Shown here in pieces: positions 1 through 41,828 of a stretch of DNA of 64,000 nt (positions are counted from its first letter, which is position 1; every line of letters begins with the position of its first letter). Where the stretch lies: the NCBI GenBank assembly GCA_051362555.1, contig CM120645.1:16492001-16556000 (forward strand), read 5' to 3'. Source of the stretch: Lingula anatina. Lineage: Eukaryota; Animalia; Brachiopoda. The translations under genes and the position numbers were made by a program. Under the pieces are notes generated by a model. It made no database searches. It saw nothing but the letters and a program-made list of their open reading frames with translations, and was not told the origin of the DNA.

Positions 1-1666
1 TCTTGTGATCGCTGCTGTGCAGCTTAAATGGGCTTCCGGTAGGATCTTTTTGCCAAGGAGAAGGTTCAAAAGCGTGCTCTTCCCCGAAGAAGTTTCGCCT
101 AGAATGTGAAAAGCCTTGTAAGTGAAAATAACATGATAAAGCCTTCATAACACATTGGTAACAATGCCTTGACGAAGTACTTTTTGCATTTCATTATATA
201 TATATATACAATAAGGCCAAAGTAATAAACAAACAATCAAATACATATGTAAAAAGCAATGTTTGATACATAAATGAATGAACCGATAATGCAAAATAAT
301 GTGAATAGAATTGATTGAATAAAAAAATTAAAAATCAATGACCCAATCTAGAAATATCATATGGATAAAATACATGTATTTTTTATTAAGTATGCGTATG
401 CGTGCTTGTGTAATCATCGGATATTGTGATTGTGTTCCCTTTTACAACTGCACATGTTGTAAAAGGTTGAGCTCAGAAAAACGCTCCAGGTTGTTATCCG
501 GCCGTTCACTTGTTAACAGCAATAATTATAAGGTATTAGAGCTGACACGTCTGGGGGTAACACCCCATGCTCCAATGGGTAGCTCAACGACTGGCTAACG
601 ATAACACAGTGAGCAAACATGTATTGTGTTCATGTAATACAATCAATTCATAAATGAAAAAAATATCACTACCAGTTGAGTTATAAAAAACTGTTACTTT
701 TGTTAACATCTAATTTATTATGAGCTCAATAGTATATATAATTTGAATGACATATTAACAGAGGAAGAGTATTTTGATAAAACTGCCCAGTAATTTGATT
801 ATAAACAGTGACTTGTTTGGTTAATAACTCCTACCTGCTACAAGTATTGGGCAGTTACCAGTTTCGAGCATGGTGATCCTTTTACGCACGTTTGTGTCTG
901 CGCTCTCAGATACAACATTCTCAGCTTCCAGTCTCTTTAAGATGCTCAAGTCAAGTAATGGTAGGGACTCCTTAATGGTTTTAAAGATCGACTGAAGTGC
1001 ATTTCTTCTTTGCGTATCATTCTCTCGTAGTTCAGCGAAAACATCAGCGGCCTAAAATTATATATATTTAGATAAACATACAGTAACTTTTGTACCCTGG
1101 CTCCCAACAACATATTCAATATACCCAACTGATATAAGGAAAACGAGGATCAACTGCTCCACGTATAAAATATGGAGAACCCTGCATGAAAGAAGACCAG
1201 ACAAATCCGCAGATGGGCTCCCCACCTCCACACGCGCCATTAAGCGGATTGAATCACTAGCCCAAGGTTTAATTGCTGGACCTCTGCAATGACAGAGCGT
1301 GTGAAACGGAGAAACCATTAGCAGATTAGTCGGGTCTTCTTTCAGGTAGAGTCCGCCATACTTGATCCGTGGATCAGAAGACCCTCGGGTTTTTTATTCT
1401 GATTGGCCTCTATGTTTACAAAACAAACGCAAAAAAAAGTAAACGTGAGTATATTTGAATAAAAAGAAAGACATAGACTATACCCTTTCCAATCTGGGAA
1501 CTTGAGAGTGTTCTGCCTCGAAATGTAAGCGAAGCCTTTCTTTTAGATCCTGTAGATCTTCAATGTCGTCAGTGTATATCTCAAAACGATCGCAAATATC
1601 AAAGGCCTCCACGGAGTCGTTCAAAGACTCGATGGTGTCTAGAGTTATGTCAATTATATTTGCCAT
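1..1666 (-). CDS. Bacterial-dynamin-like (Dynamin_N/BDLP-type) GTPase, paralog A; 5' part only, continues beyond the left edge
   Basis: Coding exons 1666-1484 (MANIIDITLD...PRLER, phase 0), 1051-835 (AADVFAELREND...GNCPILVA-G, phase 1) and 98-<1 (GETSSGKSTLLNLLLGKKILPEAHLSCTAAITR). All splice sites are GT-AG and in frame. P-loop G1 and the G2 Thr are present. Exon boundaries and phases match the gene at 6007. Probable non-coding first exon ends at 3511 (AAG|GTAAGT), with the acceptor ahead of the coding exon at 1709. Confidence 0.9.
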
Positions 1667-3025
1667 TGCTGCTACCGCCTCTTATTTCCAAGTATTTTGT
1701 GTTTTTAACCTAAAAATGATAAAGATGTGAATGGGTCGGTGTTTTTAAAAGAGAGAAAATGCACTATTATCTGTGTCAAAATTAGATTAAAAGATTACTG
1801 GCCTTGAGAGTAATACAAAAATGCTGGTGATTATGGTGATTATAATAATACTAATTATCATAATAATAATAATAATAGTTTATTAGGTAAAATTGGAAAC
1901 CTACGGTTGAAGTTGTACAAAGTATATGTTTAAAAGAAAATCGACAATAAACTTTAAATTATAAAGCAATATATGTGGTGTTTCGCCGAATTTGCAAATT
2001 TCGTAAATGGAAGTATCATCAACATCTGGACAACACGATTTTCAGGTCATTGATCATTGCAAGGAAAAGAGTTAGGCCTAATTTAGTACCCTGAAGCACT
2101 CCTCCAACCAATCAGAATTAAAGCTACTGCATTTTACTCGCAAAGAAAGGAATAAATCCATCGTCTTTGAAAGTCTGGTATCACTTGAATTTCTAATTTT
2201 TTTCATTTAGATATTGTGATCAATCCTTTTGAAAGCCTTAACAAAATTTAAGAATAACACCTGACCATAAGACTTTGTTGTGGGGGATGATTCAAGTCCT
2301 CCTATAGTAATTTATGTGTCAATTTAACTAGGGCATGGGAAGTTGAACGAGCACGCTGGAAACAAGATATCAAAATCGTCAAATAGGGGCGTTAAGGCAT
2401 TAATTTCTAAAGAGGCTCTGTGTTGTATTCAGATCCATTGACCCATCAAGGTAACAGCCGAGTCTGTCTCTTTGTCACCTTGGTTATCACTATGGCAATG
2501 CAGTCGAGGTCAATCGATTATACGACAAGCGTTGTGCATTGAAAAGAGGAGTTATATGGCGTCATATCATATATCTGGGACCCAACAAGCATATACACTT
2601 GTATTTGTGAATCTTAGCATACATGTGACTGACTTAAATCGCAGATAGGACTATTCTAGTTCTGCTGAGGGTGAAGATATAGCCTACTAGTTCACTAACA
2701 CCCCCTGGTGGTTTTGTTGTTGTTATGCGTTTTGTTGAGACCCTCACTTTACAGAAGGGAGCAAATAGGCTGGGGGCTTAAACAATGATTCAATTTCGAC
2801 GTGAACATTATTCGCCATTCTGCTGCAAAACTTCAAAAGGCATGTGCCAATGCATTACGATCACGTGGTATAAGTGTAATGTACATCTAGATTACCACGC
2901 GATCTGTTGGGCAACATCATTTGTTCAAAGAAAAAGCAATGATTCTCCCCCAGAAACTGAGGTCGGCGAAAAAAAAGAGATTGAATCCAGAACAGCAATA
3001 TCTGAGTATATTGCAATAAAAGTAA

Positions 3026-3281
3026 GACCCCGTTTCTTAACCAAGATCGACATAGCAAGATCGACCCATCTCCGAAGGGTTTCTCGTTTAATTGCATTCC
3101 GCTTAAGCGGCTCTGATATCTGACACACCTACTGAAGCTATTAGGGGGTAAACAACTATCGTTAAACAACTTCAGTAGGCGTGCTAGACATCTAAATGAC
3201 TGAAGCTGAATGCAATTTAGCGAGAAACCTGTTGGATCTGGGTGGATCTTGCTAGATCGATCTATGTATTGTAACGGGGTC
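3026..3281. mobile_element. Palindromic PIF/Harbinger-type (Tourist-like) MITE
   Basis: TAA|GACCCCGTT...AACGGGGTC|TAA with long imperfect inverted arms (e.g. aattgcattc / gaatgcaatt). Related copies at ~41145-41330 and 50569-50794. Confidence 0.7.
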
Positions 3282-3510
3282 TAAAATACGTTTTGTAGGC
3301 ATTTGTCATGCACTTTATATCATTATGACCACTTGATAGAATCCCGTCATTTTAATATGTATTAAAAAACACAATATGAATTACATGACGTGACTTTAAC
3401 CGAAAAACCTGCTTATGTCCATTGTGTTGTCAGACTGCGTTATCCACGTGCAAATAGGGTCACTGGTTAATTTGTACGTCAGTAAATACAGAATCAGGTA
3501 TAAAACTTAC

Positions 3511-3864
3511 CTTTGCTGGACATAACGTGGATTCAAACGAAGGATAAAGAAACTCCACGATTTAATTCTTTTCGGCGAAGCAACTCTCTTCCAAGAATGT
3601 GCGACTTCCATTAAATCGACCCCCAGATCAGCTGCCATCATTTGTATAACAATCGCGTAGGTCAAAGTTGTTTTTGCAACGGCACATCCAGGTATGATTT
3701 AAAAAGTGATTTATATACCTATTTTTTACTCTGGGCGTTGTCGTTTTCGAGAAAGAGGTATCTCAGGTGGGGACGACACTTATGGTTAGTTGACGTATCT
3801 GCAGTACTTTGTATTAGCGTTTGAAAAACAGGATACTGCTTTTGTTTTTGTTACTAACAGGCAG
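3511..3864. promoter_or_regulatory. Putative bidirectional promoter and non-coding first exons of the dynamin-like gene pair
   Basis: Outward-facing consensus donors: minus AAG|GTAAGT at 3511/3510 and plus CAG|GTGAGT at 3864/3865. TATATAAA on minus at 3717-3710. TTCN3GAA sites at 3571-3579 and 3589-3597. TGACG half-site near 3791. Confidence 0.5.
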
Positions 3865-4610
3865 GTGAGTGTATACGCTTCATGCATCAAAATGGCACTG
3901 ATTTTAGAAGGGTGGGTAGACATTTTGGTCGATTATATATGTCACAGGCCAGATCACAGTATAGTCCCCTTCCTAAGTGGACCAGACCACATCTCAATTA
4001 GAAGCTCATGGTATCAGGTGGGCTTCATGTCTGACATAAATTATCTCTATGTCAAACATTTTCTGATCATGTCAGACATTTGAAAGGCATTTTTCATGTA
4101 TTAATTATAAAGATAAGTCCGGTAATAACAGCAGCACAAAAGAGTGCTTACATCAGGTACACTGTGAAATAGTGGCCTCATTTTTCAACATGTCACAGTT
4201 TGTGACGTAAACTTTTCCGTTTTCTGACATTCGGAACATCAATTTCTTAAAATTTACTGGTGCGACTTAAAATTCACTGGTCGGAAAATAAAAATTCCAG
4301 CAGACTGGATAGTTACCACTCTTTCATCTATACAAGTAAGAACAAGACCTTGGTTTGTCAAATATTTTTATTTAGAATTTTAGATTTCAGAAAAATATTA
4401 ATCAAATTGAAATTGTTTTGTGAAAACTTTTAGTTTCATGATAATTGTTTTGGTGGAATAATTGTACTGTCTTATTTCTTATTTTGTATCTAAAAGTAAA
4501 TAAATTTGCTGGGTATTTATGTAATACAAACATTAAATTCTACCATGTCCTCCACACATAATACGGAGACAAAGAACTGCGCCAATATGTCTGCACCATG
4601 CTTCTAAAAC

Positions 4611-4829
4611 CCCCTTTACACTGAAGGGCGTCCTTTCTGCGTCCCTTGTGCAACCGTGAAACAGGCAGCGCTGAGGTCGTGAAAAGGATGCACAAGCAAA
4701 AAAAAAATGCTCAGTGAACAGCCAGTTGTCGGCACGTGAAGTATTATTATCCTTTTACTCTCAAACAGGATTGCACTACGGGACACAGAAAGGACTCCGC
4801 CCAGGCCAGAACCGGTTCAGTGATAGGCC
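4611..4829. mobile_element. Degenerate palindromic MITE
   Basis: Inverted arms gtcctttctgcgtccc..tgcaa (~4629-4652) / ttgca..gggacacagaaaggac (~4771-4796), plus terminal cactgaa / ttcagtg. Confidence 0.45.
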
Positions 4830-5919
4830 AAAATTTAGTAGTAAGGAATACGCATTGGTGTCATTTTCATTACACGTTTGAGAGAATCTGATTTAGAGTC
4901 CAAGCGTGGATATTCTATTTTAGTTCCAACCAGTTAAGTAATTGTCAGTAGACTATGAATTTGCTTTAAATTACTAAAAGTTGTAAAAATAAATCCCAGA
5001 ATTTTGCGAGGAGACTAGAAAATGTTCATTAAAAATTCTCGTTAGTATCAATGCGCTGGAGCACTTCATGCAGTGGCAAAAAGCGCTGATAACTGGACAG
5101 GGGATTTTTAATGCCCTGTCATCCGATAGTACGGATATTGTGACTGACATGCTGACGTTACATGTCGGACATTTTCAGTTCATGGCGCACATGTCCGGCT
5201 ATCCAACTAGGTAAAGCAGAAATATGAGAAATCGATTTTCCAGTTTTTACCCCAAATCGCAATTTTGACGTCACCTATAAGGTAACATATGTGTAAATGT
5301 TACTTAATTTAGTCACTAACACTGAAGATTAATCTATCATCCACCGTGCAGAAATATCCACAAACAAATCATATAAATCAAAATAAATCCTCCTGAAGAT
5401 AGTGATGGATTAGTCGGGGTTAAATGCTTTCTGTTCTCTTTGTTGGTTGTTCCTTTATAAACTTATGCAGATCATATAATTTGCAACTATTAAACTCTCA
5501 TTCACTACTTCCGTCCACTACTCTCAGCCACTGTTGATTGGTCTCGTTTCTTGACCTTCGATTGGCCCAGTACAATTAACAATTGGATATCATAATTTCA
5601 TGGCCTCCGACTGATCAGTTGTTGTTTTGATGTTGAATGTCGCGTAAAATGACACCTGCAACTATCAAAGTTATCTCGTTGTAAATTTACCTTCACTCCG
5701 TTTGATAAAATGTTTAAATATTCTAAAATATTTTACTGGTAGAGGTGTTAAATGATTTTTGTATAATCTATGAACCTATTATATACGAATAATTTTAAAC
5801 ATGCTGATCGTGCGAATAAATCTAAAGGCCTAAATGAATATTAGTCAGAAAAGTCGATAATTGACTTTCCTTCATACATGTACATTGGTGGACAATGGAA
5901 AAAGTAAAAAACATGTTTG

Positions 5920-5922
<3 letters not shown>

Positions 5923-5960
<38 letters not shown>
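5923..5960. repeat. (GA)n microsatellite
   Basis: About 19 GA units just upstream of the acceptor at 6001. It explains the spurious ERERER start of ORF 5917. Confidence 0.95.
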
Positions 5961-5962
<2 letters not shown>

Positions 5963-6006
5963 AAAATGTAAGTTTCCCTTCCTTTTCTTTCATTCCTTCA
6001 GAAAAA

Positions 6007-9000
6007 ATGGCTGATAAATACTCACCCCCAATTTCGTTAGATGAAATAGATGCTATATCTAATTTGAAAGAAGGCATAAAGAAGTTACGAGAATTAGGGA
6101 TAGACCACGCTGAAGTGAAGAACAAGGACGACGTCGTCCTCAGATTGAGGAAATACCTAAAAGAACATGGTGTAGGTGTGGCTGAGGAACCACTTGATGT
6201 AAGTTTTAAATGGGTAATAATTCCTGATATCCGCGCTCACTTCGCTTTTTGTTTATTTAATCAGGCCCACAGCTTAATATATGCTATATATTAATTTAGT
6301 TTTAATTCACTACAATATCGAAATGAAAAGACAAACACAGTGGATATTTAGAGGCAGTCCGTAGTCAATTTTTTTTTAAAAGAAGTGGACTAGAAGTGGA
6401 CTAGAAGTGGACTAGAAGTCAAATTTTGTAAATGGTAGCTTTTTGTTTCATTTCAGGCCGCTGAACTAATGGCAGATGCCTTGGAGGAAGATAAAGAGAC
6501 AAGAAAACAGCTACAGCAATTATACAAAGACACGATTGAGTATATTGCTGGTTTACCAGAAAAAAGACGTGATGACCTAAATCAAAACATTCCGCGAGTG
6601 GTAGAAAGATTACGTGAAAGCATTGACGAACTCTCTAAAAGCGAAAGTGGGAATTTAGTAGCAGGTATATCTGAATGATTAAAGAGGGCTTTAAGCTTTT
6701 TAACATGATTGATCAGAACAATATCTGCCATAGTGGCCCCTTTAATTTTCAAGTTCTTAGTCGAGAGTTAGACTTAGCCCTGCCATGATGAGACAACAGT
6801 AGGCCTACATGTATTTTTAATCTAAAACATCTTAAATTTAGGTTTTAACTATATGAAGTCTATATGAAAAAAATCAGTTCGTTGACTTGTGCCATGACTT
6901 GCGATATTCTGCTTTTTAGGTATGCCAGCCCATTCTCCTACGATCTGTCAACTGGCATTTGTTTACATTAGCACACGACTGTGTAAATTCGCGATCATGC
7001 ATTAATATTGATTTTGCATAATAATCGGACTCTTTGCTATAGCATTTCAGTATTTGCCATATTTCATTCATATATATTCAGGTGAGACCGGTGCTGGCAA
7101 GAGTTGCCTGTTGAATCTACTCCTTGGGGAAGATCTTCTTCCAACGGATTTCTTCAGTTGTACCGCCGTGCTGTGTGAATTAAGGTACGGTGACCAAAGG
7201 AGGGCTGTTGCACATTTCTGGGACACCAGTATACAACCTGTTACTTTGGACCTGGAAGTGCCAGATCCTCTTAAGGTTTTGAAGCCTTACATATTCCAGG
7301 AAGAAGGACGAGGGAAGAAGGAATTTCCGTACAACAGAGTCCAGTTATTTTGGCCTATCCCTCTGTTACAGGTAACAAAAGCTACGCGTTGGCAAATTTT
7401 GGGAGACCCTGAACCAATATTATATCTCAAAGAATGACATATCGTTAAATTAGTTCCATAAAAAGTATGAATCGTACCCACATATCTCTGAAAATTAAGA
7501 TTTCGTGGTGAAATGACCGTCACATTAAATATTTTCCTTCTTAATCAGTATAATGAAACAAGACATATTTCAATGCAAATTTAGCATCCATTTCTTAGAA
7601 ACAGGCTATCAGTTAAATGATGTTGCAATGGCTTAAGAAGTTCACAATTTATTCACATATGTAAAATATATTTCATATTAAAGGCATCTAAAAACATTTA
7701 TTTACAGGGAGGTGTCTATATCATGGACAGCCCGGGTATAGGAGAGAGTGAAATGATGACAAAACTTACGAAGAGTTACTTGGCCAAGGCATTTTCCTTC
7801 ATCTACGTCATCAACAGCATGGTGGCCGGAGGAGTGCAAGAAGATAGGGTAACGCTTATTGCAATTTTCACCTCTTTCCTCAAACATTTTATGTTGATGA
7901 ATAATAGTCGGTAGGAGGGCATGGTTGCAACTTCATGTCCCTCATGGGATGAAGGGGTTAAATCAGTACATGTAAGTTAGGAAGTAAGTGATATCGTCCG
8001 TTTAGATAAATAAGGTTCTCTCTTCACTATTTTACTTTTTAAGAGATTAGTATGACTGGGCAGCGTCCAGATCAGTTGTAGAATTCAATAAGTTTAGTGC
8101 TAATTTCATTTCTGCAAAGGTTAAAACTTTGAAAGAAGAGAAAGGCGAAACCCACCGCTTGTAGTTCTCGCATCTTCGCATAACTCCCTTTGGAGGTGAA
8201 AAGGATAATTATTGTTTGTTTCGATTTTCATGGGACAAACGCTGATTTCTTCACACTAATCAATGGTTAATGAATCCATTCAGTCATTCAACTTAAGTCA
8301 ATTTTTTTGTACTAATCTCTTAAGAGATTATAGCTGAGGTATAGTCATCTATGAAGATCCACGTGGTCTGATGGCAGGCACACATTCAGGAATAATTGTG
8401 TTAACCTCTTTTTGGTGGTAAAATTGAATTTATTTTATTTTTCTGAGTTGTTTACGTATGACTTGTGAAATATGAATATCATACGAACAGGCCTAATACA
8501 GTAGCTTTGAGGCAACAGTAAGTAGTGGTTTTTTAAACTGGCAGGACAAGACGCCAATGCAAATATTCTGTCAATTTCAGTGGTGAAGTTAGTACGTATA
8601 TAAGTATCGATGCGTTGTCTCTTCTTTGTAGCTTCAGGATCTCCTTAGCGATGTAGTGAGGGGTAAATTCGAGACAGAAGACAAAAATAGTGGCACAGAA
8701 AAACTTGCTTCTGGAGTTCGTCTGTTCAATCCTTCAACAGCCATCTTTGTTCTCAACAAATGGGACCAGGTGCCAGAAAAAGAGAAGGATGATGTTTTCA
8801 AAGACACTCTTCGCAAGCTGCAAAACATCTGTGACGGCTTTACTGCAGACCAGCTTTTCCCTATGTCGGTGACAAAGGTGAGTTTTTTCACTTTATTGGA
8901 CGTTCTATACCTAGTACATGTAAATCCAGTTATGGATCAGAAGGTCTGTTAACAACAGGCTTCTGATTCGGACATAGCTCAACAGTAGACACTGTTTGAA

Positions 9001-12000
9001 CCAAAATAGACGACGCCATCTGTTTCGTGTCGAAAACGCGGAAATTCTGTGTCATTAGATTGTTAATTCTACAACACTGTCTTTTGTATTCTTCTCAGAT
9101 CCAGGCTTTTTTGAACATGGCATATGCCCTCACTATAAATTGCCGGTAATTTAACATTTTTATAATTGTCGCCAGGATAAACACAAACAAAAACAAACCC
9201 CAAGCAGAACATGGAATAATACTCAACTAAAACTGGTTGAATTATACTTCTATATTTGAATTTAGTTTGAACTTACTGAAGTCGCAGATGCAATATCCTT
9301 TGGAGTATTCCATCATTTAAGCAAGAGAACTTAAAGCCTTGCACTTTGGTTTTCGGGACGTTATAACATATGGTTTTGCAATTCTGTATCCCCTTTCATC
9401 TCCTTCAAATAAAACAGAACTTATTCGAAAATGGTTCCAATCAAACTATTATCTTGGAAGTATAGAGAAATTCTAATCTTCCTCGAGGCGCGATAACTTA
9501 AGATTTAAATGCAGGATCTGCACTGCCCTGAGCATATTTATAGCTGTTAAGTTCAGGTCAAGTTCGAAAATGGACCGTTACAGACCTTATCCCTATATTT
9601 AGTAATTGTAGTGATTTTCTCTTTTTTCTGGGATATTTCTAAAGTCAAACAATTCTGATAATATTTTTGATTATATAAAAAACCTTTCTACGAAATGTTT
9701 GATCAAAATGCTATTTAATATATCTGGTACCACAAAACGTCTCTTGAAATGCTTTTAAAATATTCGCGAAAGGTGTTTTTGTTGTAATAGTGTTTCTATT
9801 TTCTTATCTTTTCATAATTCATTATGCATACATCAGGCTCAAAGTGCACTAAAACAAGGCTGTGCAACACCCGAGTTCTCAAACTTCCTTGTTGGGCTGA
9901 AGAAACTTTTTCCTAAGACCCTAAAATCAAATCAGGAGACTAAATACAGGTAACAAAATGTTTATTTGACTGTTTCCTTTACTATGGTCACCATAAAATA
10001 TATCATTCAGTGTGTCATTTAGTGAACGGTTTATAAGGATGAGCATGTATGAACTCTGTACATTTTATTTTATAACATAATACCAATAACCTTTTTACCA
10101 GAAAATTTTTTTAAACCCAATTTAGATTAGTAGTTCACATTCTGCGAAGATCCGCGTTTCATCTAAAGTCAGCTTTGAACATCTTTGAAAGATCTGAGGA
10201 AGAACGTAAGAAGAAAGCTGCTGAAATCATGCGACAGATTGGAAAGATAAAGAACAGTTTTGAAGGGAAGCGTTTTAAATTGCTAGGGCTTTTAAAGACA
10301 AAGGCTCAACAAGCTGCACAACAAATCCAAGATTACCTGCATAAGAATAAAGAGCGTGTCCTGAAATGGAAAGATGACGATTGTCCAAGGCCAACTGACC
10401 ATTGGGATGATCTTTACACACAAGCTAGAACCCTCATCCTAGGGAGAATCCGCGAACTACTGGAGGAATGGAACACAAACACTGAGTTCTTCACAAATGC
10501 ACAGAAGGAGCTTATAGGAAAGTTCCACGTAGAGTTCAACATCATGGAGAACCAAGTTGCTCTTTTGGAAGGTCAGTTAACCAGCAACGATATGCTTGTA
10601 GTCGAGGACGCAAACCCCACAGGCTTAAGAGACGTGGAGGACACTTCTACTTTCACCACCACTGAGAAAGTCATCATTGGCGTCACTTCTCCAATTTGGA
10701 TTCCAATAGGCCTCGTAGCTGCACTTTTCGTTGTCCCTGTTGCCCTTGGGGTAGCACTAAAAGAGCGTCTGAACGAGAAGAAACAAATCAAAGAGTATAC
10801 AAAACACAAAGCGGCAGTCATGGAAACTATTGCAGCAAAAGTACTCGAACATTTTATGTCCGAAGAAAACCTGTCGAAAGAGGTGATGCGGTACTTGAAC
10901 TCTGCGGTTGCCACACTGAATAACCTACTCAGTGCTATTCCAAAACTCCTAGATGATGACCTTCAGCTCATAAAAGGGTTGCTAAGTGAAAGTCAGACAG
11001 CGAAATCAGAGTTGCAACTGTACCAGAAAAAGCTCCAGTGGAATGATACCTTAGAGGGATGCCTAGGGTTGTTGTACGTGACAAAAATCCGGGAAGACAT
11101 CAACGCAAATACAGAAATTAAATGGATCTTGCCTGCTTTTGCCACTGGCACGTTTGGTGAAGTTTATACCGTGACCCTTCTATCAAGAAACAACATGATG
11201 GCAGCGGCAAAGGTGATGAAGCAGTTTGCAACAGCAGAGAACGTGGGTGAGGCTATACTAGAAGAGGAAAGTTTAAGGTGAGATGTCCAGATTAGGATAG
11301 ATGTTTACATCTTATTTAATTATTTTACTAGTGGCGAAAAAGGTTCTTTTAATGTGGTACTTGTTTAGAAACGGGTGGGTATATTAATATTAATTATGTC
11401 TGTTAATGCGGTAAAGAGGAAATAATTTTGCTACATTTGGCATGATCAGTTTGACTATTTTTGTTGATACAGGAGACTTAACAGAACCCCTAACATCATC
11501 AAGTTCATAGGAACCAGCGCCATCATAGAGCCAGATGGTAACAGGCGCCTTGTCATTCTAATGGAGTATTGCCCCAAAACCCTTGCAAATCGTATGTTAA
11601 ATGCAGATGCGACAAGTCCCAAAGGACAACGGGAGATCATAAACCCTGGTTTGAAGCAACGGTTAGATCCTGGCCTCGTGCGTTCTGTCGCTTACTTTGG
11701 TAAGCAAATATGCACTGGATTAAGGTGCATGCATGCTCAAGGATACATTCACAGAGACTTGAAACCGGAAAACATATTGGTAAGTCTGAAGTTGGATGGA
11801 AGTTATTCCTAAGATACAAGTTTTAGTGACTCAGATCTTATCAGTTATAAAAAAAATTGCATTTCATATACTACATATACTTCTCATGGTATTATTAAAT
11901 TTGCGTATTGACTCAATACTTTGTGTATAACGCTTTGCTGCCGTTCAGTACAAATGTGATTATCCAAATACGAAACATTTGTGTACATAACCAATTTATG

Positions 12001-13090
12001 ATGCTATGCGCTTTTTCAAATACTCCTTTGATGCCATCAGGTAACTGATAGAGATGAAGTTCGACTTGCTGATGTGGGACTGACAAAACCGCAGTGTGAC
12101 ATCACTGGTACACTATGTGGAACACTGGTTTACATGGCACCAGAAATTCTGAAGAAGGAAAAGTACGGAGCACCTGCAGATATGTTTGCAATTGGGGTCA
12201 TGCTTTGGGAAATGTGGTATGGGAAACGTGCCTACAATCTGCCTTGCTTTGAGAACTTCGAAAATATATCAGATTTTTTGAAGGTGAGTTATACTTCATT
12301 GAATGAGTTACTGTTAAATCGGTGCGCACTGAATATGCTTCAGAGAAGTATATCGTCTCTGGCATATTTCATCATAAAATTCATTTGACAAAAGGGGAAA
12401 TTGGTCTCACTCGAGTTTAAGAATCGGGAACTACTGCAAATAACTTTTACACATTTATTTGGTGGGCATTGGTAGAGATGGTAAATTGTACGTATTCTGA
12501 AGCCCACGGTGATTAACATAAATGTAGCCATTTATATTACATGAGTGAAAGTTTCTAGGAATATACCTGATTTCGGGATTTTTGGTTTTCATTTGATAGA
12601 TTATTTCATATGGTCTAAATAAGGATGAGAAGTAAGCGTTAAGAAATTGCAAGTTACGTTTTCAGGATTTTCAGTGTCTTCAACTTTCACACGTGATTTA
12701 AATATCTGTGTTTCAAAAAACAGATTTACCCTCCTTAATCTCCCTATAACACCAGTTTAAACCGAATACTGATTTACTCTCAAAAACTTTGACTAAACTC
12801 AAACAAAAAACAATTAAACGGGAGAGATTGTAAACCATTAAGATTTAACACTTTTCCCTGTTGTGAATACATATACTTCATATTGTGAGAAAGGGGCTTT
12901 AACATTTGACTTTAATTTCCAGCTTGACTGGACATCACTTATTATCCTTAAGGGTTTTACACCGCCGCCGTCCATGTGGTGCGAGAAGTTAGGAAAGCTG
13001 CTTTCCCCCACACCATCTGAAAGACCAACAGCAAGCCAAATAGAGAGATTTCTTGCAGAAGAAACCCACAAAAGATATCGTCATAATTAA
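6007..13090 (+). CDS. Dynamin-like GTPase / membrane hairpin / protein kinase fusion (DSTYK-like architecture), paralog B, ~1019 aa
   Basis: Exons 6007-6198, 6457-6664, 7082-7371, 7708-7848, 8632-8877, 9837-9949, 10126-11277, 11473-11779, 12041-12283, 12923-13090; all GT-AG, phases consistent, total 3060 nt. GTPase motifs: G1 GETGAGKS, G2 LLPTDFFSCTA, G3 DSPG, G4 NKWD. Helical stalk followed by hydrophobic VIIGVTSPIWIPIGLVAALFVVPVALGVAL. Kinase motifs: ATGTFGEVY, AAAK, HRDLKPEN, DVG, GTLVYMAPE, DMFAIG, ERPTA. Confidence 0.92.
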
Positions 13091-14234
13091 TTTCCAGAAT
13101 ATTGTGGATAGCAACACAATCTCAATATGGACACCTTCTTTCTAGACATAGACTGATAAAGATTAATGAATTTTGAGGGGGATATGTTGGCCCAGGCTCT
13201 GAAGACACTTTGGATTAGAGCATTTCTGGTAAAGGGGAGATCCTTTGCCACTTGATTTCCAATATCTTGCCACAGGTTTTCAATGGGGTTTTGCATCTGA
13301 TGATTGGGCAGGCCAGTCCACCCTGTTGATACCACTCTTGCACTGCCCTGGCCCTGTTTGGTGTAGCGTTATCATCTTGAAATATGTAAGGGGGTTCCTG
13401 TCCAATAAGATTTTTCAGACCTACGAACCTTCAGACTATCGAGATGCCTCTGTCCGGGCAATGGTTCTTGTAGCCCATGTCACTCCTCTGCATCTGTTTA
13501 CCAAGTGATGGGTGGCTACCTCCTGTCAATCCTGCTGTGAAAACCTGAAGCATGGAGCCTTCTTTGTACAGTTATTGTGCTAATTACAACCTGCAAACTG
13601 CGCGACCATTGCAATGTTAATTTCCTGCAGGGCTTAAACCTCCTAAGCCTTGACAGCATAAAAAGGCGCCTGTCGTCTCTGGTATTAGTCATCCTTGGGC
13701 TGCGACTTCGATGTAATTTATGGGCATCACCAGTGTCCTCCATCCTTCTGTAAACCCTATACACAGGCTGATGAGATACACCATATCTGGCAGCTGACTG
13801 GGTAACATTGATACTCTCCTCCCTCAGAGAAACAATGTCATTTCTCTCATTTGTGAGCTCCCGTACCGTCAACATGGTTGCAACGTGCAGGGCCGTAGCC
13901 TGAGCAAAATGCCAGAGGGGGCAGTAAGCGGACACAAGGGGGTGAAGCCCCTGAGGGGGGAGGGGGTGTCCCCCTACCAGTGTGGAAAATTCTAAATCCC
14001 AGGGGGGGGGGGCAGCTGCCCCCCCCCCCTGCCCCCCCTGGAGGCTATGGCCCTGATGTGACAGCTAGCAGGACCATTTTACCTTCCGAGGCACCTTTAG
14101 TAGAACACATGGATGAAAACTCATCACTGGTAAAGCAAGCATTAAACAAAAAAAAAACTTGTTGAACAAACAGGTCCCCCATGTCACATAGAGCACTATT
14201 CACACAGGGGGTGCAATACTTATGTCACCCTCTG
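13087..14234 (-). mobile_element. Decayed Tc1/mariner (Tc1-type DDE) transposon with frameshifted transposase
   Basis: ATG at 13875. Paired-like HTH region with RSRSPRMTNTRDDRRL and ISTITVQRRLH. Catalytic remnants FQDDNA and WPAQSSD..NPIENLW across frameshifts, with an internal deletion. One TIR-like end CAGAGGGTGACATAAGTATTGCACC at 14234-14210; no second TIR found. Confidence 0.88.
13888..14055. mobile_element. GC-rich hAT-like MITE nested in the Tc1 5' region
   Basis: TIR CAGGGCCGTAGCC / GGCTATGGCCCTG; 5-bp flanks ACGTG / ATGTG; internal G-run/C-run hairpin. Confidence 0.75.
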
Positions 14235-15655: not shown

Positions 15656-17522
15656 AACAAGGCAGCAAAGCTGTCAAATGTACAGACAAAAAACAGAAAA
15701 TAAAGATGCAAATAAGTGAAAAATTAAATTTTCACAAAAAACTGTTAAATTGCCAGAAAAATTTACCAAACAGACTGCATTGCCTATTGAAGCTGTATGT
15801 TAGACCCATGTTTCTTTCCTGTAAGTTTGAGAACAGTAAGTGACATGATTTCCCTTAAATGGTCATCATAGGAGCAGTGCCCAAAATAGGGGTTTCTTCA
15901 AATTTTGATGCAACATTACATAATGTTGAACAGCATGATGACAATCAAATGTTATTAATAAAATATTAGTAACATGGACATTCAGAAAATGTGACAAGCA
16001 AAAGTCTTCAGGATCATGGAACTTTAAAGTCACACCTTGTAAATGCCAATATGTGAAAAATTAAATTTTCACAAAAAAACTGTTTAACTGCCAAAAAAAA
16101 AAAGAAAGAAAAAAAAAACCAAACAGACTGCATTGCCTACTGAAGCTGTATTTTAGTCCCAGGTTTCTTCCCTGTAAGTTTGAGAACAGTAAGTGACATA
16201 ATTTTCCTTAAATGGTCATTATGGAAGCAGTGCCCAAAATAGGGGTTTCTTCAAATTTTGATAATGTTTAATGACCATCGATTTTTAATTATAAAATATT
16301 TGTATCACAGATATTCAGAAAATGTGACTAGCAAAGGTCTTCAGGCCCATGGAACTTCAAAGTCACACCTTGAAAATGCCAAAATGTAAACAAGACAGCA
16401 CTGTTCTGAAATGGGTTTATTTCCATTTTTAACACTTTTTTAACATAAAACAAAATAAACATTTTACTGCCATTTTTATATGATCAACTAAGAAAATTGA
16501 TGAGATGGGAAAACTATCAATAGAACAGTGTTAAATGTCCAATTTCCTCCATTCTGAGATTCTGAACATAGTGGATGATTGAATCTGACAAACTGCAATG
16601 ATATGAGTTTATTTCCATTTTTGACACTTTATTACACAATACATGATAACAAGTTTACCATGTTTTTTACATAATCAACTAACAATGTTGTAAAGATGCA
16701 GGAAATATCAAACAAACACTTTTAGGCATCTTATTAGTTAAATAATGAGACTGTTAACATGCCTAATAATTGAATCTGAAGACGTGAAAAAACAGTATAA
16801 CTTCTAAAATAATGGCCCGATTATGCTGATTTTGGAACTCAACCTGCGTTTTAGTAAGATTGACCACTCCTGTGAGTATAATTACAATTGGCCAATCTGT
16901 TTTTCTTATATTGTGTTATCAGTGTTGCATTTATATTGAAAATAGTGAAAAAACAGCATAAATTCCCTAAAAGTGACCCAATCATGCTGATTTTCGAACT
17001 CGACCTGCGTATTATGAATATTCATCAGTTCTGTAAGTTTCAAGTCAAAAGGTAAAATGGTTTTCCACTTATCGTGTTATCGGTGCTGCATATATGCTGA
17101 AAAAAGTGAAAAAACAGCATAAATTCCCTAAAAGTGACCCGATCATGCTGATTTTCGAACTTGACCTGCGTATTATGAATATTCATCAGTTCTGTAAGTT
17201 TCAAGTCAAAAGGTAAAATGGTTTTCCACTTATCGTGTTATCGGTGCTGCATATATGCTGAAAAAAGTGAAAAAACAGCATAAATTCCCTAAAAGTGACC
17301 CGATCATGCTGATTTTCGAACTTGACCTGCGTATTATGAATATTCATCAGTTCTGCAAGTTTCAAGTCAAAAGGTAAAATGGTTTTCCACTTATCGTGTT
17401 ATCGGTAAAAGTGCACGGCGACGACAGCGACGACGGCGACGACAGCGATGACAGCGACGACGGCGACGACAGACGCAGGTGATGGCTATATGTACAGACA
17501 CAGATGTGTCTGTACATAAAAA
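15656..17522 (-). mobile_element. Helentron-associated non-autonomous element (HINE/DINE-1/pearl-like) with internal tandem arrays
   Basis: End AACAAGGCAGCAAAGCTGTC (short stem-loop). SubTIR ATGTACAGACA (15678-15688) / TGTCTGTACAT (17507-17517). Terminal 14-bp hairpin 17489-17518. GACGAC(A/G)GC microsatellite ~17419-17476. Internal tandem repeats. A shorter relative lies at 59068-59810. Confidence 0.75.
16784..17406. repeat. 161-bp tandem repeat, ~4 copies
   Basis: Units start GTGAAAAAACAG at 16784, 16945, 17106 and 17267. The last three are nearly identical and the first is diverged. Confidence 0.92.
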
Positions 17523-18463
17523 TGAAGATGAGTTATCTGCACATTTGACAGTTGTAGCCGACTTGCATCCTAGTTACAGTTTACAAGAAACATCTTGTTT
17601 GTCAAGCAGTTGTCGTTAGTTATTCTACGTAAAATGGGTCCCAGGCCATGAACAAATTCAGTATAAACATGTTAAAGTTAAAGCTTAAACTACATTTTAG
17701 GACTCATTCACCCAACATCCATATCATTTTAAAGAAACATACAACTTTTCTACTAGTATCATCCCCTCCTTCAAGAAGCAATACTGATAAGTGCCAGTTT
17801 CCTCCCCAAGTTGAACTGACATTATGGCTGCAGCATTCACAGTTATAACAATCCTGTGTAATCAATTCAAAAACAAAAAAACTATTATTTTTTAAACCGC
17901 AAAGTGCACTAAATAATTTCCTTGTAGCAAAAATATAAACAATAGTATACTTGTGCACTTTAGACTACTTGGCATCTTCCATTTCATCAAGTCACATGCT
18001 TCAGTAGGGATCAGAGATTTTGATATTTTATTTCTAACATCGTGTACAGCAACAGGAATCACTGCTTAACTTCCATTATTAAATAAAACAATTCTGACCC
18101 AGTTTTTCTTTCAAATTTCATTTATTGACAGCAAAACATAACAGGGTAAAAATCACAAACAGGGTACGTATAATGCCCTAAGGAAACCAATAAAACGTTT
18201 TTGTCCTCTTTGAAACAAACATCACAAAAGCAGTAGAAAACACTGTGAACTTTCACACTTAAACAGAAATATGTACGAAACCATGAGCACTTTCACCTGT
18301 GCACTGAAATGATTTCCATACCCTTGCTCAGATCTGTTGGATACCATGTAACCTTATAAGATACCATTCATCATCTTCTGAAAAACATGTTTAATTCTTA
18401 GTCATTTTACTTGAACTAAATTTAATACTGTCTCACTTAATCGGACACTCAAAACTATCTAGC

Positions 18464-18625
18464 CAGGGGCGGATCCAGATATATTTTCTAACAGTCTTCC
18501 AAATTATAAAATCCGTCCCCATTTTTGACTGTCTTCCACGAGAAGAAATAAGATACCCGTCAGTATAAACTTGAAAATCTGACAGACTTCCAGAAGACCC
18601 AGAAGATGTCCTAAATCCGCCCCTG
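18464..18625 (+). mobile_element. hAT-like MITE, CAGGGGCGGAT family, copy 1
   Basis: TIR CAGGGGCGGAT / ATCCGCCCCTG; flanks CTAGC / CAAGC; internal sequence matches copies at 48764 and 56901 in reverse orientation. Confidence 0.85.
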
Positions 18626-18935
18626 CAAGCAATCATGTCAGCAGTGCCAGTTTCCATTTTGTACCTAGGACTGCTTGAGGATAACAAATGCCCTAAATCT
18701 GGAGCTTATTATCCATCCAAAAACCCTCAAGATAAGCATAGCCCAACTATAAGTAAAAGGTCTAGCCCCTGTTTCACACAACATCTTCTAAAATATTGAA
18801 AGTTGGTGTAAGGTTTCTGGCCAAGATTTTTAATTTGACCCCCAAGTTAAAATAAGTAGTAGTCAAATGAATGAAATATTTTTATCTGATAGACAAGCAA
18901 TTGTACACCAACACAAATAGTATCCATAGTATTTC

Positions 18936-21900
18936 TTATACAACTGGTGACTGTATATCAATCTGCAAAGCTTCCAGCAATGCTTCTTTCTCAGCTAGTT
19001 TATCTTTAAGATTTGCAATCTCGTCAATTTGCTTTGTGATTGTATTCCTCAGTGACTTGATAATCTGATCTTTGCTCAGGAAAAGTTCGCTCTGCAGTAC
19101 ATCAGTGGCAGATGGGCGCCTGACAGGAGTCGGGTCTGTCAGCAGATCTATTGTTTGAGCCTAAAGAAAATAAATTCAAACATATGTATTTATATAAGTC
19201 CATAATCTATAAAATTGAAAATAATAATGTTTCAGCAAAGTGATGAAATGATTTGTTGGCATACTTAAATAAATCACAAAGTTTGATTTTGAAATTATTC
19301 TTAACATTTTAGCAGATTTGAATCGATTAGTACATAGTGAAATGGAGTAATAAACCTACATAACAAATAAATGTCTAGACTGGCAAACCCAATTTTAAAT
19401 TCTACTTCTGCTACTGTACACTAGTACTTCCATGCATCTCATAATATTAGTTATCAATACTCACAACGATTGGCCAGTTTGTCCTGATCACCTGGGGAAT
19501 GACTTCAGTGCTGCCACCTTTCAGAGCCATCAGACACTGTATTCTCTCCATCTCTGTCCCAAATGGATGAAACAGTTCAAACAATATCACCCCTAGGCTG
19601 TACATATCACTCTGAAAAGAGATTGGTGGTGTTATCTAATCAATAATTCTACACATACTTAATATTTCTTTTTTCCAATATAGCCTCCATTAATCCTGAA
19701 TTCAATTTGACACTTCTACCTCTGTGACCTGTTAATATTTTTATTTCAAAATATTGATTAAATGCATTTGATAAATCAAGATGAGACACCAACACTAATT
19801 ATTCAGCCAAAGTTTTTTTTTTTTTTTTTTTTTTTTTTTTGCATGATTTATACTCTATAAGACCATAATCATTCTTGTTCACACATATATTGAACAGTAA
19901 TGAATTCAGAAATTTCTCTGGTTTTCATTCACTTTCTCTTTCTTAGTGTTCATAGATACAATTCATGTTCAAATAGTCACCTTGGAAACTATGGAAAATG
20001 AAAAAGGCTCGAGCTTGTTTTAGGAAAAAATCTAGTTTTTATTGACTATTCAAAGTCCATTCCACCCTGTAGCAGGTTGAGGTCAAGTTTCTTAGTGTAA
20101 ACACTCACCTTGCTATCATAACATGATCCAGCTAGTTGCTCAGGTGCAGCATAAATACTGGTCCCTATCCCTGAGGTGTAAGGGGTCTCATTGCAGGAAC
20201 TCCATGCAGCTGACACTAAAATCAAACACAGTGTGATTCATTAAAATAATACCACAATTGATTTTATTGAATTTTTCACTACATGCATTATTTTACCATT
20301 TTGCTAAAACCATTCCCTTCAATTCCAAGCTAATTATATAAATCATATTTTACATTTTTAGTAATTATGAATGATAACCCCAAGTGTTGGTCAAACAAAA
20401 TAAAATATATTTTTTTAACTTTTTAAGATTACAGTCATATTGTGGAGAGACCAGGGGAAGGTAATAAGTCTGGCACCTGTTAATTATAATTCATAGCCCC
20501 ACACATGTAGCAGCTAGAGTTTTATACTCTCCATGGAGGTGAAATCTATTTATGACCAGGCAAATCCATAAGGACCAGGCATAAATTGCTGGCTGATCAT
20601 TGGATCATCAGGTTTAAAGACCAATTTCTTTACTTTTATCTATATTTTAGATTTTACCCAACCTGTCAAAATAATTTGAATTTTCAGATAAATAAATTAA
20701 GTCCACTGTATAAACATGAGGTCAGTAAATTTGGTGTTTTCTGTTCAGAACTAACAAACTGTATACTTTTAGATACAAAGAGATAAAACATAAGAAATAT
20801 TTTTCTCTCACTTGTATTTTTTCCAAAAGGACTGAGTGGGAACACGGTAGGGCTCTCCAGTAGGACATCTTCCCTCGTCAAACCAAAGTCTCCAATCTTC
20901 ACCTGAAGCTTGTCCCCATGGAGGAATATATTCCTTGGCTAAAACAATTCATATGAAAAGATATGGTCATAAATAATAACTAAAATATATGATGGTAGTG
21001 AAAGTTTTCAATCAAGAAAAGTAAGAAAAGCTGGCCAAGTCATGTTGACAGAGACACAGGTCTTTCATATTCAAGTTGGTTCAGTCATAGCTGGGGAGCC
21101 TGCAGGAGAACCTGTCTTGAGTGATGAAGGTTGACAATGATTTAACAAGAAAATAATGCTAAGCACTCTGAGTTTCAGAGGTGACTGCTAATACATGCAA
21201 GTCTCCAGTAACCACTGAATTCTAGGGTGGCTAGAAATATCAAGGAATTGGGGGGGGGGGATGTCCAAGGGTTCAGTCAGAATCAAAATTTATATTAAAA
21301 AAAATTCCCTTTTTTTGGAATTGCTGGCAACAGGTATGTACAGTACATATAAAGAATCTAAAACACACCTTGAGGTCTCTGTGTATCAATCCCTGTGAAT
21401 GTATGTACTCCGCCCCTTTAAATATCTGCTTGGCAATCCACATCAGTTCCTCCACCTTCACAACAGAGAATGGATCTGAAAACAAACAAAAAAAAGAGCA
21501 AATGTAGAGGGTTTTTAGATCATCAGTCTGAAAATAAAAGTTACATATTTACTTTACTGCACAAAATCTTTTCATCCAATTCTCGATTTTTTATGCAAGG
21601 TTGTTGGAACCTTTCTGTCACCTAGTCCAGTTTTGTATATATATATTGGATGCATAAATGTGTGTGTCTGTGAGTGCAGGTGTATGTGTGTGTGCATAAA
21701 AACATTTAAATTATATTATATGTTTAATTCAAATCACCATAGTCCTACCCTGTCCAGTCTGTAAACAACCGTTCCTCTCACTGAGCCACTCCCCCAGTGT
21801 GTGGGAGCAGAGCTGCATCTGGATATACAGAGTCACTTTATTTGTCACAAAAGTTTCACAGGGCACTGCAGTGTGCATAATACTGTGTATCTCACTGTCT

Positions 21901-24900
21901 ATCAACCCATCCCCTGCTAGAGATGGCTCATGGCTTTGGCTCCTCCTGGGAAGATGGTGCCGCTGCCATAATCTATTAGTTCTACTGCTGGGTATATCAG
22001 CCATTGCTCCAATGGGAAAAGTCCTGGGAGATTTATTATCACCCCAGTTTTTTAATCTGGGTTCATTGCTCTCTGCGTTTGTGGAAGAACTTTTAGGATC
22101 AGAGGACAAGAAAACAGCATCATCCTCTTCATGAGAGTCTACAGTCATATGCTTGGTTCTCTCAACTAATCTTTGCATTTCTGGTACAAATAAAGCATTC
22201 AAATTTGGCACCAAAGGACTATAAGGTAGGAGACTTCTGCACTTTACAGACTCCACTTTTTTGCTAGTCTCAGTTGTTTTATTTGGACTCCTTGAGTATT
22301 TATATTTTAGTTTAGTGGTAACTTGTCTGCGCATTGACGTCTCAGTGTTAGTCTCAATTCTAAGGTTCTCCTCTTGCACTGAGGTGACCTTGATGCTGTC
22401 TTCAAACACAATACTAGTTCCACTGTACTCTTCCCCATAACCCCCAGGGTCTGCATCCTGGGGCGAGGCTGAGAAAGATTCTTGGTCAAAGTTATTACTG
22501 TCGCTGCTTTCTTCTGAATCGGACATACTTGAAAGTAGAATAATAAATAGCTAGCTCCTTCACAATTCCAATTTGGGTTGTCAACTGAGAGTAAATTTAA
22601 TTCATATATTTATCTGATTTGCTACTGTGGAATTCACATTTTTCAAACTATATTTCACAAAGAAAGCATAATTAAGGCAGTGTCTTCATATTCTCAATTC
22701 TTAATTTACAGCAACAGCTCTAAATATAATATTGCTGATATCAAAAGCAATTTTAAACACATAATAGAGTATACAAAAAGAAAAAAAAACACTTACTCAT
22801 CCAGATCTCTGATTGGTGTGCTTGGTAAAGGACCCTGGGGTGGTTTGGCTGACATTGTGGGGGTCTGTTCCAGCCAGGCAGCATTATAACCCACTATGTA
22901 CTGGTGACTCAAGTTGGCTAAAACTTTCACCTCTCTGAGAATCTGTAAACGAACACTGCAAGGTAACTGATGTTTCTAACTACAAAACAAGTGATATACT
23001 ATTTCAAAAAATAAAATCTTTATGAGTCACATTTGCTGTACTGTAAAAGAGCAGCAACCCGGCTACCAGAGCCAAGTGGAAACTCATCCATACTACCCTT
23101 TAACACAGGAATAGAATTGGAAAAAAATCAAATAAGCATTTGTGAAAATTTGATCATGGCAAAACTCTCCTGGATGTCATGCACACAAAGAGATTTCAAA
23201 ATGAAGAAGCTGGTACACATCAGTTCAGGCTATTCATTGTATACTGGCCACTTTTCTTTATCACAGTGAAAAACTTGAGATGTTACAACTCACCTTCACC
23301 CACCCCTCTGGCTGATTGGGTTTCAATCTAATTTTCTTCACTGCATACTCACACCCATCTAACTTGTGCTTGACCTGCAGTACAGCAAAAATAAAGTTTA
23401 AGTATAAATCATAATTAATATCTTACTAACAAATTATACACAATGTGTCTACAAAATTTATTTGAATTCTAACATCAGCCTCAAGTACATAAAACACACA
23501 TGTAATATTTTTAGTCCAGAAATTAACTCAAGAAAATGTGTGCGTGTATATATTATTCTTTAATTCAATGCCCAATAATGTAATGTACTTGTGAGAATAG
23601 GGTTATGTAACACTACACAGGCCTACAGGCAAGGGGGCTTTGGGTTGGTCCAAGTAAACTTATAACTAGGAAATGGTCCACTCTGAGTCAATATTCTGCC
23701 CAGGTTTTGGTTGCTCATCCATTGAAATCAATGAGGTTAAGCTTGGTTTTTGTGGTTAGGAGATAAGGTGATCAATTTAATTTCAACACCATAGGTTCTA
23801 TCATGACAGAATTGAAAATTGAAGCATGTGTCAGTTCTGCAGCCACATGGATCACTTTTCAACCAACCCCCCCCCCCCCCCCCCCCACCTCCAGTTGAAA
23901 TTTTTGGCTATAGACCTGATGCATAAGCAATGCATACTAACCCTATATACACTTCCAAACCCTCCTCTGCCCAGTTTCTCCTGCTCCACAAACTCCTCTG
24001 TGTACCTTGATGTGTGCATGTGCATCAGATCGTCAAAGCTCGCATTACGTATGAGACTAAAAAGAAAACAGTTGCTGCATGAAAACTGATGGTTACATTC
24101 AGAGGTATCCTATTTGGGATTGTTGCTCTAAATCAAATTTTTGAGAATTATATTCTCAAACTCACGAGTCATGTACAGACACGTCCCTGCACTTAAATCT
24201 TGTTTTATACCATTTCTAATAACTTTATTACTAAATCATTTACTATGTATTAATGTACCTGTACCCTCGTGAGTTTAAGACCCCTCTACTGGGGGTCACA
24301 CACTGACTAAAGTGACCAAGACTTACAAGTACTGTCAGTGAAATATTGAATCTGGTAAACATTCAACCTTTATACCAATCTGAAGTTTGCCACCAACACA
24401 ATAACTTTTCAGTCATATTTGTTATTTATTGCTGCCATGGTACAAGGACAACCATAACTGACTATATTTTCAATTTTTTTAATTCAAATATTTGGGACTA
24501 GTGAGTATTCATCAAAATTAGGTACTGATGTAACTAAGTTTGGAAATGTTATTTATAATTTTTAAAAATAATAAATTTTTCTTTCAAAGTGTTTATATGT
24601 GTGTGCAACAGCATGTTACCATGAGCAAAAGGGTGTGCCCTCGTGAGCACACATACATTCTCATGCATGAAAGAATGCATGCATTATTGCATACACGTAC
24701 ATGTCTGTGTGAACACGTGTAGTAACTAGTGGATATACATGCAATTGCTTTACCTTTCCTGTGGATTTACTGTTGGGAACATCTCGGAGGAGGGCAAAGC
24801 CTTTGGTGGACCAAATTCCTGCAAATATCAAAATTAACCATTAGAGCTGTTAGTGTACTGGTATTATACCTATAATGGACTTCACATATAATAGTCAAAA

Positions 24901-27629: not shown

Positions 27630-33817
<6,188 letters not shown>

Positions 33818-35355: not shown

Positions 35356-41607
<6,252 letters not shown>

Positions 41608-41828
41608 GTTTACCCTGGAACAATTTACTCATGATATGATTTTTCAAAACTCTAATTCAATAATTGTAATGTATGCAAGGGGAATGGATTTTGTGATTGT
41701 ATTCAAGAATGTAGGGGTTATTTTCTAATTTATAAGAGGAAATGAACTTTTCTGTTGGCTAAATAATCAATTTCATTCAATGAGCGAAGTCGTGGCATGT
41801 TTCTTCACACAACGCCCTTACTACTTAC

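Follow-up and report, generated by a model that had tools for sequence, protein, structure and literature searches.

Upon GTP binding, the bacterial dynamin-like protein (DLP) BDLP opens and inserts its paddle, and it forms polymers by way of contacts between G domains (accessible text of PMC2862293). The Campylobacter proteins DLP1 and DLP2 are monomers alone, while their 2:2 heteromer gains GTPase and lipid-binding activity, and DLP genes of bacteria mostly occur in pairs (both from the accessible part of PMC6104087). Moreover, the available portion of a preprint on a two-gene bacterial dynamin system reports anti-phage protection that requires both P-loops (10.1101/2022.05.11.491447). Here we describe two animal genes of this type, gene A and gene B, which lie head to head at the left end of a stretch of 64,000 nucleotides from the brachiopod Lingula anatina (contig CM120645.1, positions 16,492,001 to 16,556,000; the window). 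Each encodes a BDLP-like GTPase followed by a protein kinase fold, which is by its motifs active-type in B and a pseudokinase in A. This combination of domains is already in the databases, under automatic names; what is new is that active and pseudokinase members appear to be paired in both protostomes and chordates.

Nostoc BDLP (PDB 2j68/2j69) and mycobacterial IniA (6j72) are the top matches in sequence and in fold, with the same GTPase, neck, trunk and hydrophobic tip. BDLP is the best sequence match (E 8.8e-12) and heads the Foldseek search for both models (E 5.6e-19 for B and 1.0e-19 for A). Unlike BDLP and IniA, A and B are animal genes with introns, whose products carry one more module at the N-terminus and end in a kinase or pseudokinase. 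Campylobacter DLP1/DLP2, B. subtilis DynA and LeoABC-like anti-phage systems have paralogous DLP genes side by side, as A and B do; bacterial pairs, however, are tandem operons or fusions without a kinase, whereas A and B are divergent and carry kinase domains. The sequence matches to these systems are weak (CjDLP2 E 5.2e-5, DynA 1.7e-9, LeoBC 1.2e-7), far below family cut-offs, and membership in Eleos/LeoABC was rejected because A and B are spliced animal genes and LeoBC scored 29.2 and 24.4 bits only. The mitofusins MFN1 and MFN2, which form heterotypic pairs, share the fold class of A and B (residues 65-721 of B against the MFN2 structure: Z 28.0, rmsd 6.6, 358 aligned). Mitofusin orthology was rejected, as there is no mitofusin-specific Pfam family among the precomputed domains, a kinase comes after the last neck helix and the family is multi-copy. 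The database records of A and B list solely Dynamin_N, MMR_HSR1 and kinase families. Mx proteins have the dynamin middle and GED families and no membrane hairpin; we rejected membership there, since neither of these Pfam families is on the records and MxB ranks 33 for A, well below BDLP and the mitofusins. ROCO proteins such as LRRK2 and DAPK are GTPase-gated kinases, a class we also rejected, the GTPase here being Dynamin_N with a membrane hairpin and no Roc or COR family being listed.

Gene B occupies 6007-13090 on the plus strand and has ten coding exons, nine introns, all GT-AG, and 1019 codons with zero internal stops. Exons 1-5 lie at 6007-6198, 6457-6664, 7082-7371, 7708-7848 and 8632-8877, and exons 6-10 at 9837-9949, 10126-11277, 11473-11779, 12041-12283 and 12923-13090. 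A non-coding leader exon on the same strand (3751-3864, upstream edge uncertain) is joined from 3864 to 6002 in 14 reads of RNA run X18, and further reads have loose ends at 3864; seven of the nine coding introns are present among the joints listed for that run. Exons 1 and 2 (6002-6664, as 6002-6198 with the ATG at 6007, and 6457-6664) encode the N-terminal module and neck helices, according to the open reading frame (ORF), the joints and the model. Exons 3-6 (7082-9949) encode the GTPase domain, with G1-G4 intact, and the start of the stalk (Dynamin_N 1.4e-8, motif table, model). Exon 7 (10126-11277) holds the helical trunk, a hydrophobic hairpin at residues 578-612, the return helices and the start of the kinase N-lobe (hydropathy peak, model). 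Exons 8-10 (11473-13090) complete the protein kinase, with HRDLKPEN, DVG and APE, and end at the stop codon 13088-13090 (Pkinase 2.1e-11 and 5.4e-14, and joints). All the catalytic motifs are kept (beta3 Lys, alphaC Glu, HRD, catalytic-loop Lys and Asn, DxG, APE), and by motif B is an active-type protein kinase. Its large exon is 95% identical to L. anatina LOC106174710, and the protein is 97.8% identical to a database protein that we call P0005. In exons 1-2 (6007-6664) the window copy differs from the database copies and the reads mostly by amino-acid changes, among them a polar residue immediately preceding the P-loop; relaxed or positive selection, or conversion, may lie behind them.

Gene A runs leftwards from 1666 on the minus strand through exons 1666-1484, 1051-835 and 98-1, and exits the window after 166 codons. 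The coding part of its exon 1 (1484-1666, phase 0) encodes a helical N-terminal module of about 55 residues, and the 432-base joint that follows was read 5 times in run X18, 17 times in X19 and 7 times in X20. Exon 2 (835-1051, phase 1 end) encodes N-terminal neck helices (ORF, reads, protein alignment), and exon 3 (1-98), with the P-loop and G2 (Dynamin_N 4.4e-8), continues past the left edge; the 97-834 joint has 9, 12 and 2 reads, so that both visible introns are spliced in all three runs. The acceptor of exon 1 is probably at 1709, a candidate from splice-site consensus, and upstream of it we place a probable non-coding leader exon at 3511-3750 on the minus strand, with a full-consensus donor at 3511 and an uncertain upstream edge. 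All 166 residues encoded in the window are identical to the start of a database protein of 1027 residues, P0012, whose scaffold has the same length as that of P0005 (256,735); on the strength of this identity and of the equal scaffold size we take P0012 as full-length gene A. Features of A beyond residue 166 are read from P0012, as the corresponding exons lie outside the window. P0012 has the layout of gene B (GTPase, stalk, hairpin, kinase fold) with a kinase domain that lacks several of the catalytic motifs, CLDLSMDT, NIS and LPY replacing the HRDLKPEN, DVG and APE of B. The beta3 Lys and the Asp of the catalytic loop (HRD) are retained, the metal-binding Asp of DxG is Asn, and the catalytic-loop Lys and Asn are gone. 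Since the metal-binding Asp and Asn are absent, its motifs class the domain as a pseudokinase. Whether gene A has a hairpin and a kinase had been asked by an earlier, model-made reading of the window, the first-pass annotation; the hairpin (585-616) and the kinase fold are there in P0012, but the kinase is a pseudokinase and the module is asymmetric.

The two proteins are 27% identical over 933 residues (E 2e-73), and both P-loop exons match Dynamin_N (35.4 and 33.8 bits, against a curated cut-off of 27). Homology exon by exon is weak, with E 0.007 for exon 1 and no alignment for exon 2; intron phases 0 and 1 agree at corresponding positions, the P-loops are as quoted in the first-pass annotation, and G1, the G2 Thr, G3 and G4 are intact in both. 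The claim of paired homologous GTPase genes is borne out by these comparisons. The AlphaFold models of A and B (pLDDT 79.1 and 78.3) have the same order of parts: a small helical module at the N-terminus, neck helices, the GTPase domain, a long trunk, a hairpin, return helices and the kinase fold, which is attached after the last neck helix as this comes back alongside the GTPase domain. The hairpin is hydrophobic in both, with hydropathy peaks of 2.49 in B and 2.14 in A, and model confidence falls below 50 in that stretch. We describe A and B as proteins of predicted BDLP/mitofusin-type fold, with a GTPase, a neck bundle, a helical trunk and a hydrophobic paddle. The N-terminal module of about 55 residues gave zero Pfam families and zero matches in the Atlas, and looks like a helix-loop-helix (SAP/LEM-like) by eye only. 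No third member of the family was found in the window by tblastn.

The leader donors of the two genes are 353 bp apart (3511-3864), which makes a shared promoter likely, and this interval likely holds both start sites and the common promoter. First exons within about 350 bp had been claimed before; the spacing stands with the donor of B, confirmed by its spliced reads, and the donor of A at 3511 is probable only. Reads cover 3451-3750 and fall to zero at 3301-3450, which fits a gene A leader with that donor; a leader joint 3511-1709 is absent among the RNA joints listed, and the libraries look unstranded. The expression of A and B covaries: both are well covered in X18 and both are near silent in X12, X13 and X15, where, at similar depth, there are 0-2 reads per listed site for either gene. 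X19 and X20 reads cover gene A plus the leader of gene B. RNA reads are mostly 90-95% alike to the window, so that sister copies or a different population may be their source. Among the best 40 rows of read differences, 10 of the 11 differing codons in gene A are silent, as against 5 of 14 in gene B, where the changes are mostly in the N-terminal exons. With the A type spliced and its changes of this kind, gene A does not look like the pseudogene or unexpressed copy that could have undone the proposed pair. Two GAS-like (STAT-type) palindromes lie between the leaders, at 3571 and 3589 (3571-3597), 18 bp apart; this is two against 0.2 expected, with 21 palindromic sites in the 64 kb and as one of eight motifs tried, and is not significant. 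Two further features were noted at 4605-4765 and 17037-17398: a dispersed repeat that has inverted ends, is transcribed and dominates read depth, and a direct duplication of 161 bp in the ORF list.

A profile built from A and B gave 82 matches, and 245 representatives with an E-value no worse than 1e-30. The named animal matches are from amphioxus, hemichordates, corals and molluscs, with no vertebrate, insect or nematode among them. Look-alikes in the Atlas were cnidarian and mollusc clusters (0.97), followed by DSTYK clusters (0.91). Among 120 aligned rows, 47 have an active kinase motif and 51 a common dead-kinase signature. Core residues of G1, G3 and G4 are kept in 92-100% of both sets, while the catalytic-loop Lys and Asn and the DxG Asp are present in 100% of the active type and are not among the top residues in the pseudokinase type. 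The hydrophobic hairpin was found in 32 of the 47 active and 26 of the 51 pseudokinase members. Several mollusc proteins, with both subtypes among them, are without it (P0100, P0103, P0072, P0061), so membrane anchoring varies within the family.

With the motif columns removed, a tree of the kinase domain separated the 51 rows from the 47 (SH-aLRT 97, with long-branch warnings). In a tree of the non-kinase part, A grouped with the second Lingula A and with mollusc and amphioxus pseudokinases (support 97-98), and B with the second Lingula B and mollusc active forms (94-97); a Lingula-only clade of five rows was rejected (p-AU 1.5e-6). The trees cover proteins of 800-1250 residues, without 9 rows that were near-duplicates or lay outside the family; the kinase tree is also without 6 rows whose kinase was classed as 'other'. 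Other trees used 40 or 26 of the 120 rows, and the non-kinase supports of 98 for A, 97 for B and 72 (the last given below) come from a quick tree. A and B are, by these phylogenies, two old subfamilies in separate clades, and from the groupings and the rejected Lingula-only clade the split likely predates the protostome-deuterostome divergence.

The pairing recurs beyond this locus and species. Of the six close A copies and the six close B copies in the Lingula reference, five of each lie on scaffolds whose lengths match between the two types, and LOC106164176 and LOC106164177 are consecutive. An older pair, LOC106163463/LOC106163465, lies on one scaffold, with 34-36% identity to B and A. For Branchiostoma lanceolatum, consecutive accessions cover both types in two annotations (pseudokinase XP_066272436-438 and active XP_066272439 in one, active CAH1253244 and pseudokinase CAH1253245-247 in the other). 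Both types are on each of two short B. belcheri scaffolds (296,652 and 328,927 bases), and the abalone Haliotis cracherodii has them on one chromosome. One Lingula protein, P0002 (LOC106164177), is B-type to the catalytic loop and then has an A-type C-lobe from the exon 8/9 boundary of B; by its sequence it would be either a real chimera or a fused gene model, implying A and B pieces on one strand of that scaffold. The old, maintained, divergently transcribed pair of the first-pass annotation thus survives, on the split subfamilies, the splicing of A, the older Lingula pair and the amphioxus neighbours.

By analogy, the A/B pair would work like a paired bacterial DLP to which a kinase switch has been added. 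A and B would be made together from one short promoter common to both and would co-assemble on a membrane. As in BDLP and Campylobacter DLP1/2, GTP binding would open the molecule, the hairpin would enter the bilayer and the G domains would pair. Because the kinase sits beside the GTPase domain in the model, A:B pairing through the G domains would juxtapose the two kinase folds, and the pseudokinase of A might then control the kinase of B. The output would be a cell-autonomous switch for defence or membrane damage; a defence role is suggested by copy turnover, by named animal matches only in aquatic invertebrates and by analogy with bacterial dynamin pairs. HER3/EGFR, JAK JH2/JH1, STRAD/LKB1 and RIPK3/MLKL are kinase/pseudokinase pairs with an allosteric pseudokinase partner; A and B differ from them in being full-length paralogues encoded head to head. 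That A and B form a physical module is, in our judgement, probable. The full reading, with a shared promoter, an A:B membrane module, a pseudokinase-controlled kinase and a role in defence or membrane damage, has close to an even chance. Its boldest extension we hold to be doubtful: the genes would form a so far undescribed innate immune system of two components, dating back at least to the split between protostomes and deuterostomes. On this view, the head-to-head BDLP-like pair would sense foreign or damaged membrane through GTP-driven hetero-assembly and respond by phosphorylation through the pseudokinase-kinase switch; it would correspond, in animals, to the paired dynamins that act against phage and to the paired receptors of plants, and would perhaps be the ancestral context of DSTYK.

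Several observations weigh against such a module. All 13 named full-length matches from stony corals belong to the active lineage, 12 of them with the complete motif; coral loci share the early exon layout of A and B. Of the 45 metagenome loci with matches, which are short and mostly coral-type, 22 are of at least 3 kb, and on these we found no second, opposite-strand family gene; one locus (L039) has two intronless GTPase matches in tandem. From the corals and these loci, B-type proteins apparently exist without A. Among the Lingula records, three of the nine A-type and two of the eight B-type ones are partner-less on their own scaffold, and some copies may be haplotype duplicates. A B. floridae x belcheri assembly has both types on a single chromosome, though with accessions 459 apart, and a paired amphioxus pseudokinase (P0031) is not the nearest amphioxus relative of Lingula A, so the pair may be re-formed rather than strictly orthologous. 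Adjacency outside the window is inferred from equal scaffold sizes and consecutive accessions, and the head-to-head layout was read in the window only. Outside the kinase domain, monophyly of the pseudokinases was not rejected when tested (p 0.38) but has weak support (72), and their grouping may owe something to long-branch attraction. Reads at the similarity given above show splicing of both types rather than expression of the exact window copy, and come from only three RNA studies. Finally, no ISRE, NF-kB-like or AP-1 site was found in 3400-4000.

Partner-less Lingula copies and coral members that apparently function without a pseudokinase fit the view that linkage and co-regulation are the relic of an old inverted duplication, each protein acting alone. 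A common promoter would by itself make the pair duplicate as a unit. Nevertheless, A keeps its GTPase motifs and its dead-kinase signature across phyla, and this points to a non-catalytic function towards a partner; adjacency is seen again in amphioxus; and bacterial relatives require heteromers, according to the accessible text of PMC6104087. We consider a mere relic unlikely.

The main functional rival keeps the same A:B complex and assigns it to routine membrane traffic, that is, endolysosome or vacuole tethering and fusion as for DSTYK, with no special role in defence. Like A and B, DSTYK has a long N-terminal region and a C-terminal kinase, and some coral members of the family are automatically named DSTYK-like. 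DSTYK clusters, however, show no Dynamin_N, whereas the A/B family keeps intact G motifs, and no pseudokinase twin of DSTYK is known. A DSTYK-like motif was in none of the family proteins, and the likeness is that of the feature score of 0.91. Dstyk regulates vacuole fusion in zebrafish (in the accessible part of PMC7012607), which together with the rank of the DSTYK clusters, the fusogenic BDLP/mitofusin type of fold and the housekeeping nature of the neighbouring genes speaks for a trafficking role. Set against this are a Lingula copy number that changes fast, with truncated, degenerate and chimeric copies, the near silence of the genes in three of six RNA runs and the groups missing from the named matches. 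A purely trafficking role thus appears quite unlikely to us, and it need not exclude defence, given that DSTYK phosphorylates STING at late endosomes (PMC11933320, accessible text).

It is improbable that A is instead a decoy or brake, binding pathogen factors aimed at B-like kinases or restraining B until its release triggers B, after the sensor/executor logic of head-to-head receptor pairs in plants. The head-to-head layout and the asymmetric catalytic state would suit such a role, as would several pseudokinase lineages in amphioxus and a pseudokinase N-lobe less conserved than that of the active type (0.35 vs 0.46). Lower conservation is, however, expected for any pseudokinase, the mostly silent read changes of gene A do not indicate diversifying selection, and no ligand is known. 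That the repeated Lingula pairs are assembly duplicates with a decaying A is very improbable: close copies are 90-98% identical and several models are truncated, but the older pair contradicts it for the family, A is spliced with mostly silent changes, and in an independent DNA run contig depth is 219-294 over the exons of A and 46-48 over unique pieces close by, although depth is no copy number.

Elsewhere in the window, a Tc1/mariner-type transposase relic (13519-14064, minus strand; HTH_Tnp_Tc3_2 E 1.7e-6) lies directly past gene B and may mark the edge of the cassette. It is followed by a gene like HRI/EIF2AK1, the heme-regulated eIF2-alpha kinase (18433-25144, minus strand; HRI2_3H E 4.7e-12 and kinase exons), placed tail to tail with gene B. 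Farther right are what we take to be an arginine methyltransferase exon (33581-33814, plus), TMEM209-like exons (36728-41656, minus; CytochromB561_N), an LSM gene (42750-43368, plus) and an EGF-repeat gene, perhaps stabilin-like (51449-61001, minus).

We came across no account of the family, of either subtype or of the pairing in the literature searched, which did not extend to subscription journals and supplements with possible expression tables. In the accessible text of PMC11789081 the words kinase and BDLP are absent, as is dynamin in that of PMC8195603 and PMC12373286, and the available part of an amphioxus interferon preprint has Mx only. For human DSTYK, a protein placed at late endosomes and in vacuole fusion by the accessible portions of PMC11933320 and PMC7012607, the pair suggests a testable hypothesis about the N-terminal part, which still lacks an explanation, and A and B are two defined proteins with which a simple reconstitution could be tried. 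If the proposed reading is true, the bacterial rule of DLPs acting in pairs would extend to animals, where a membrane-remodelling GTPase would be wired directly to a kinase switch, its catalytic and non-catalytic partners having stayed adjacent for more than 500 million years.

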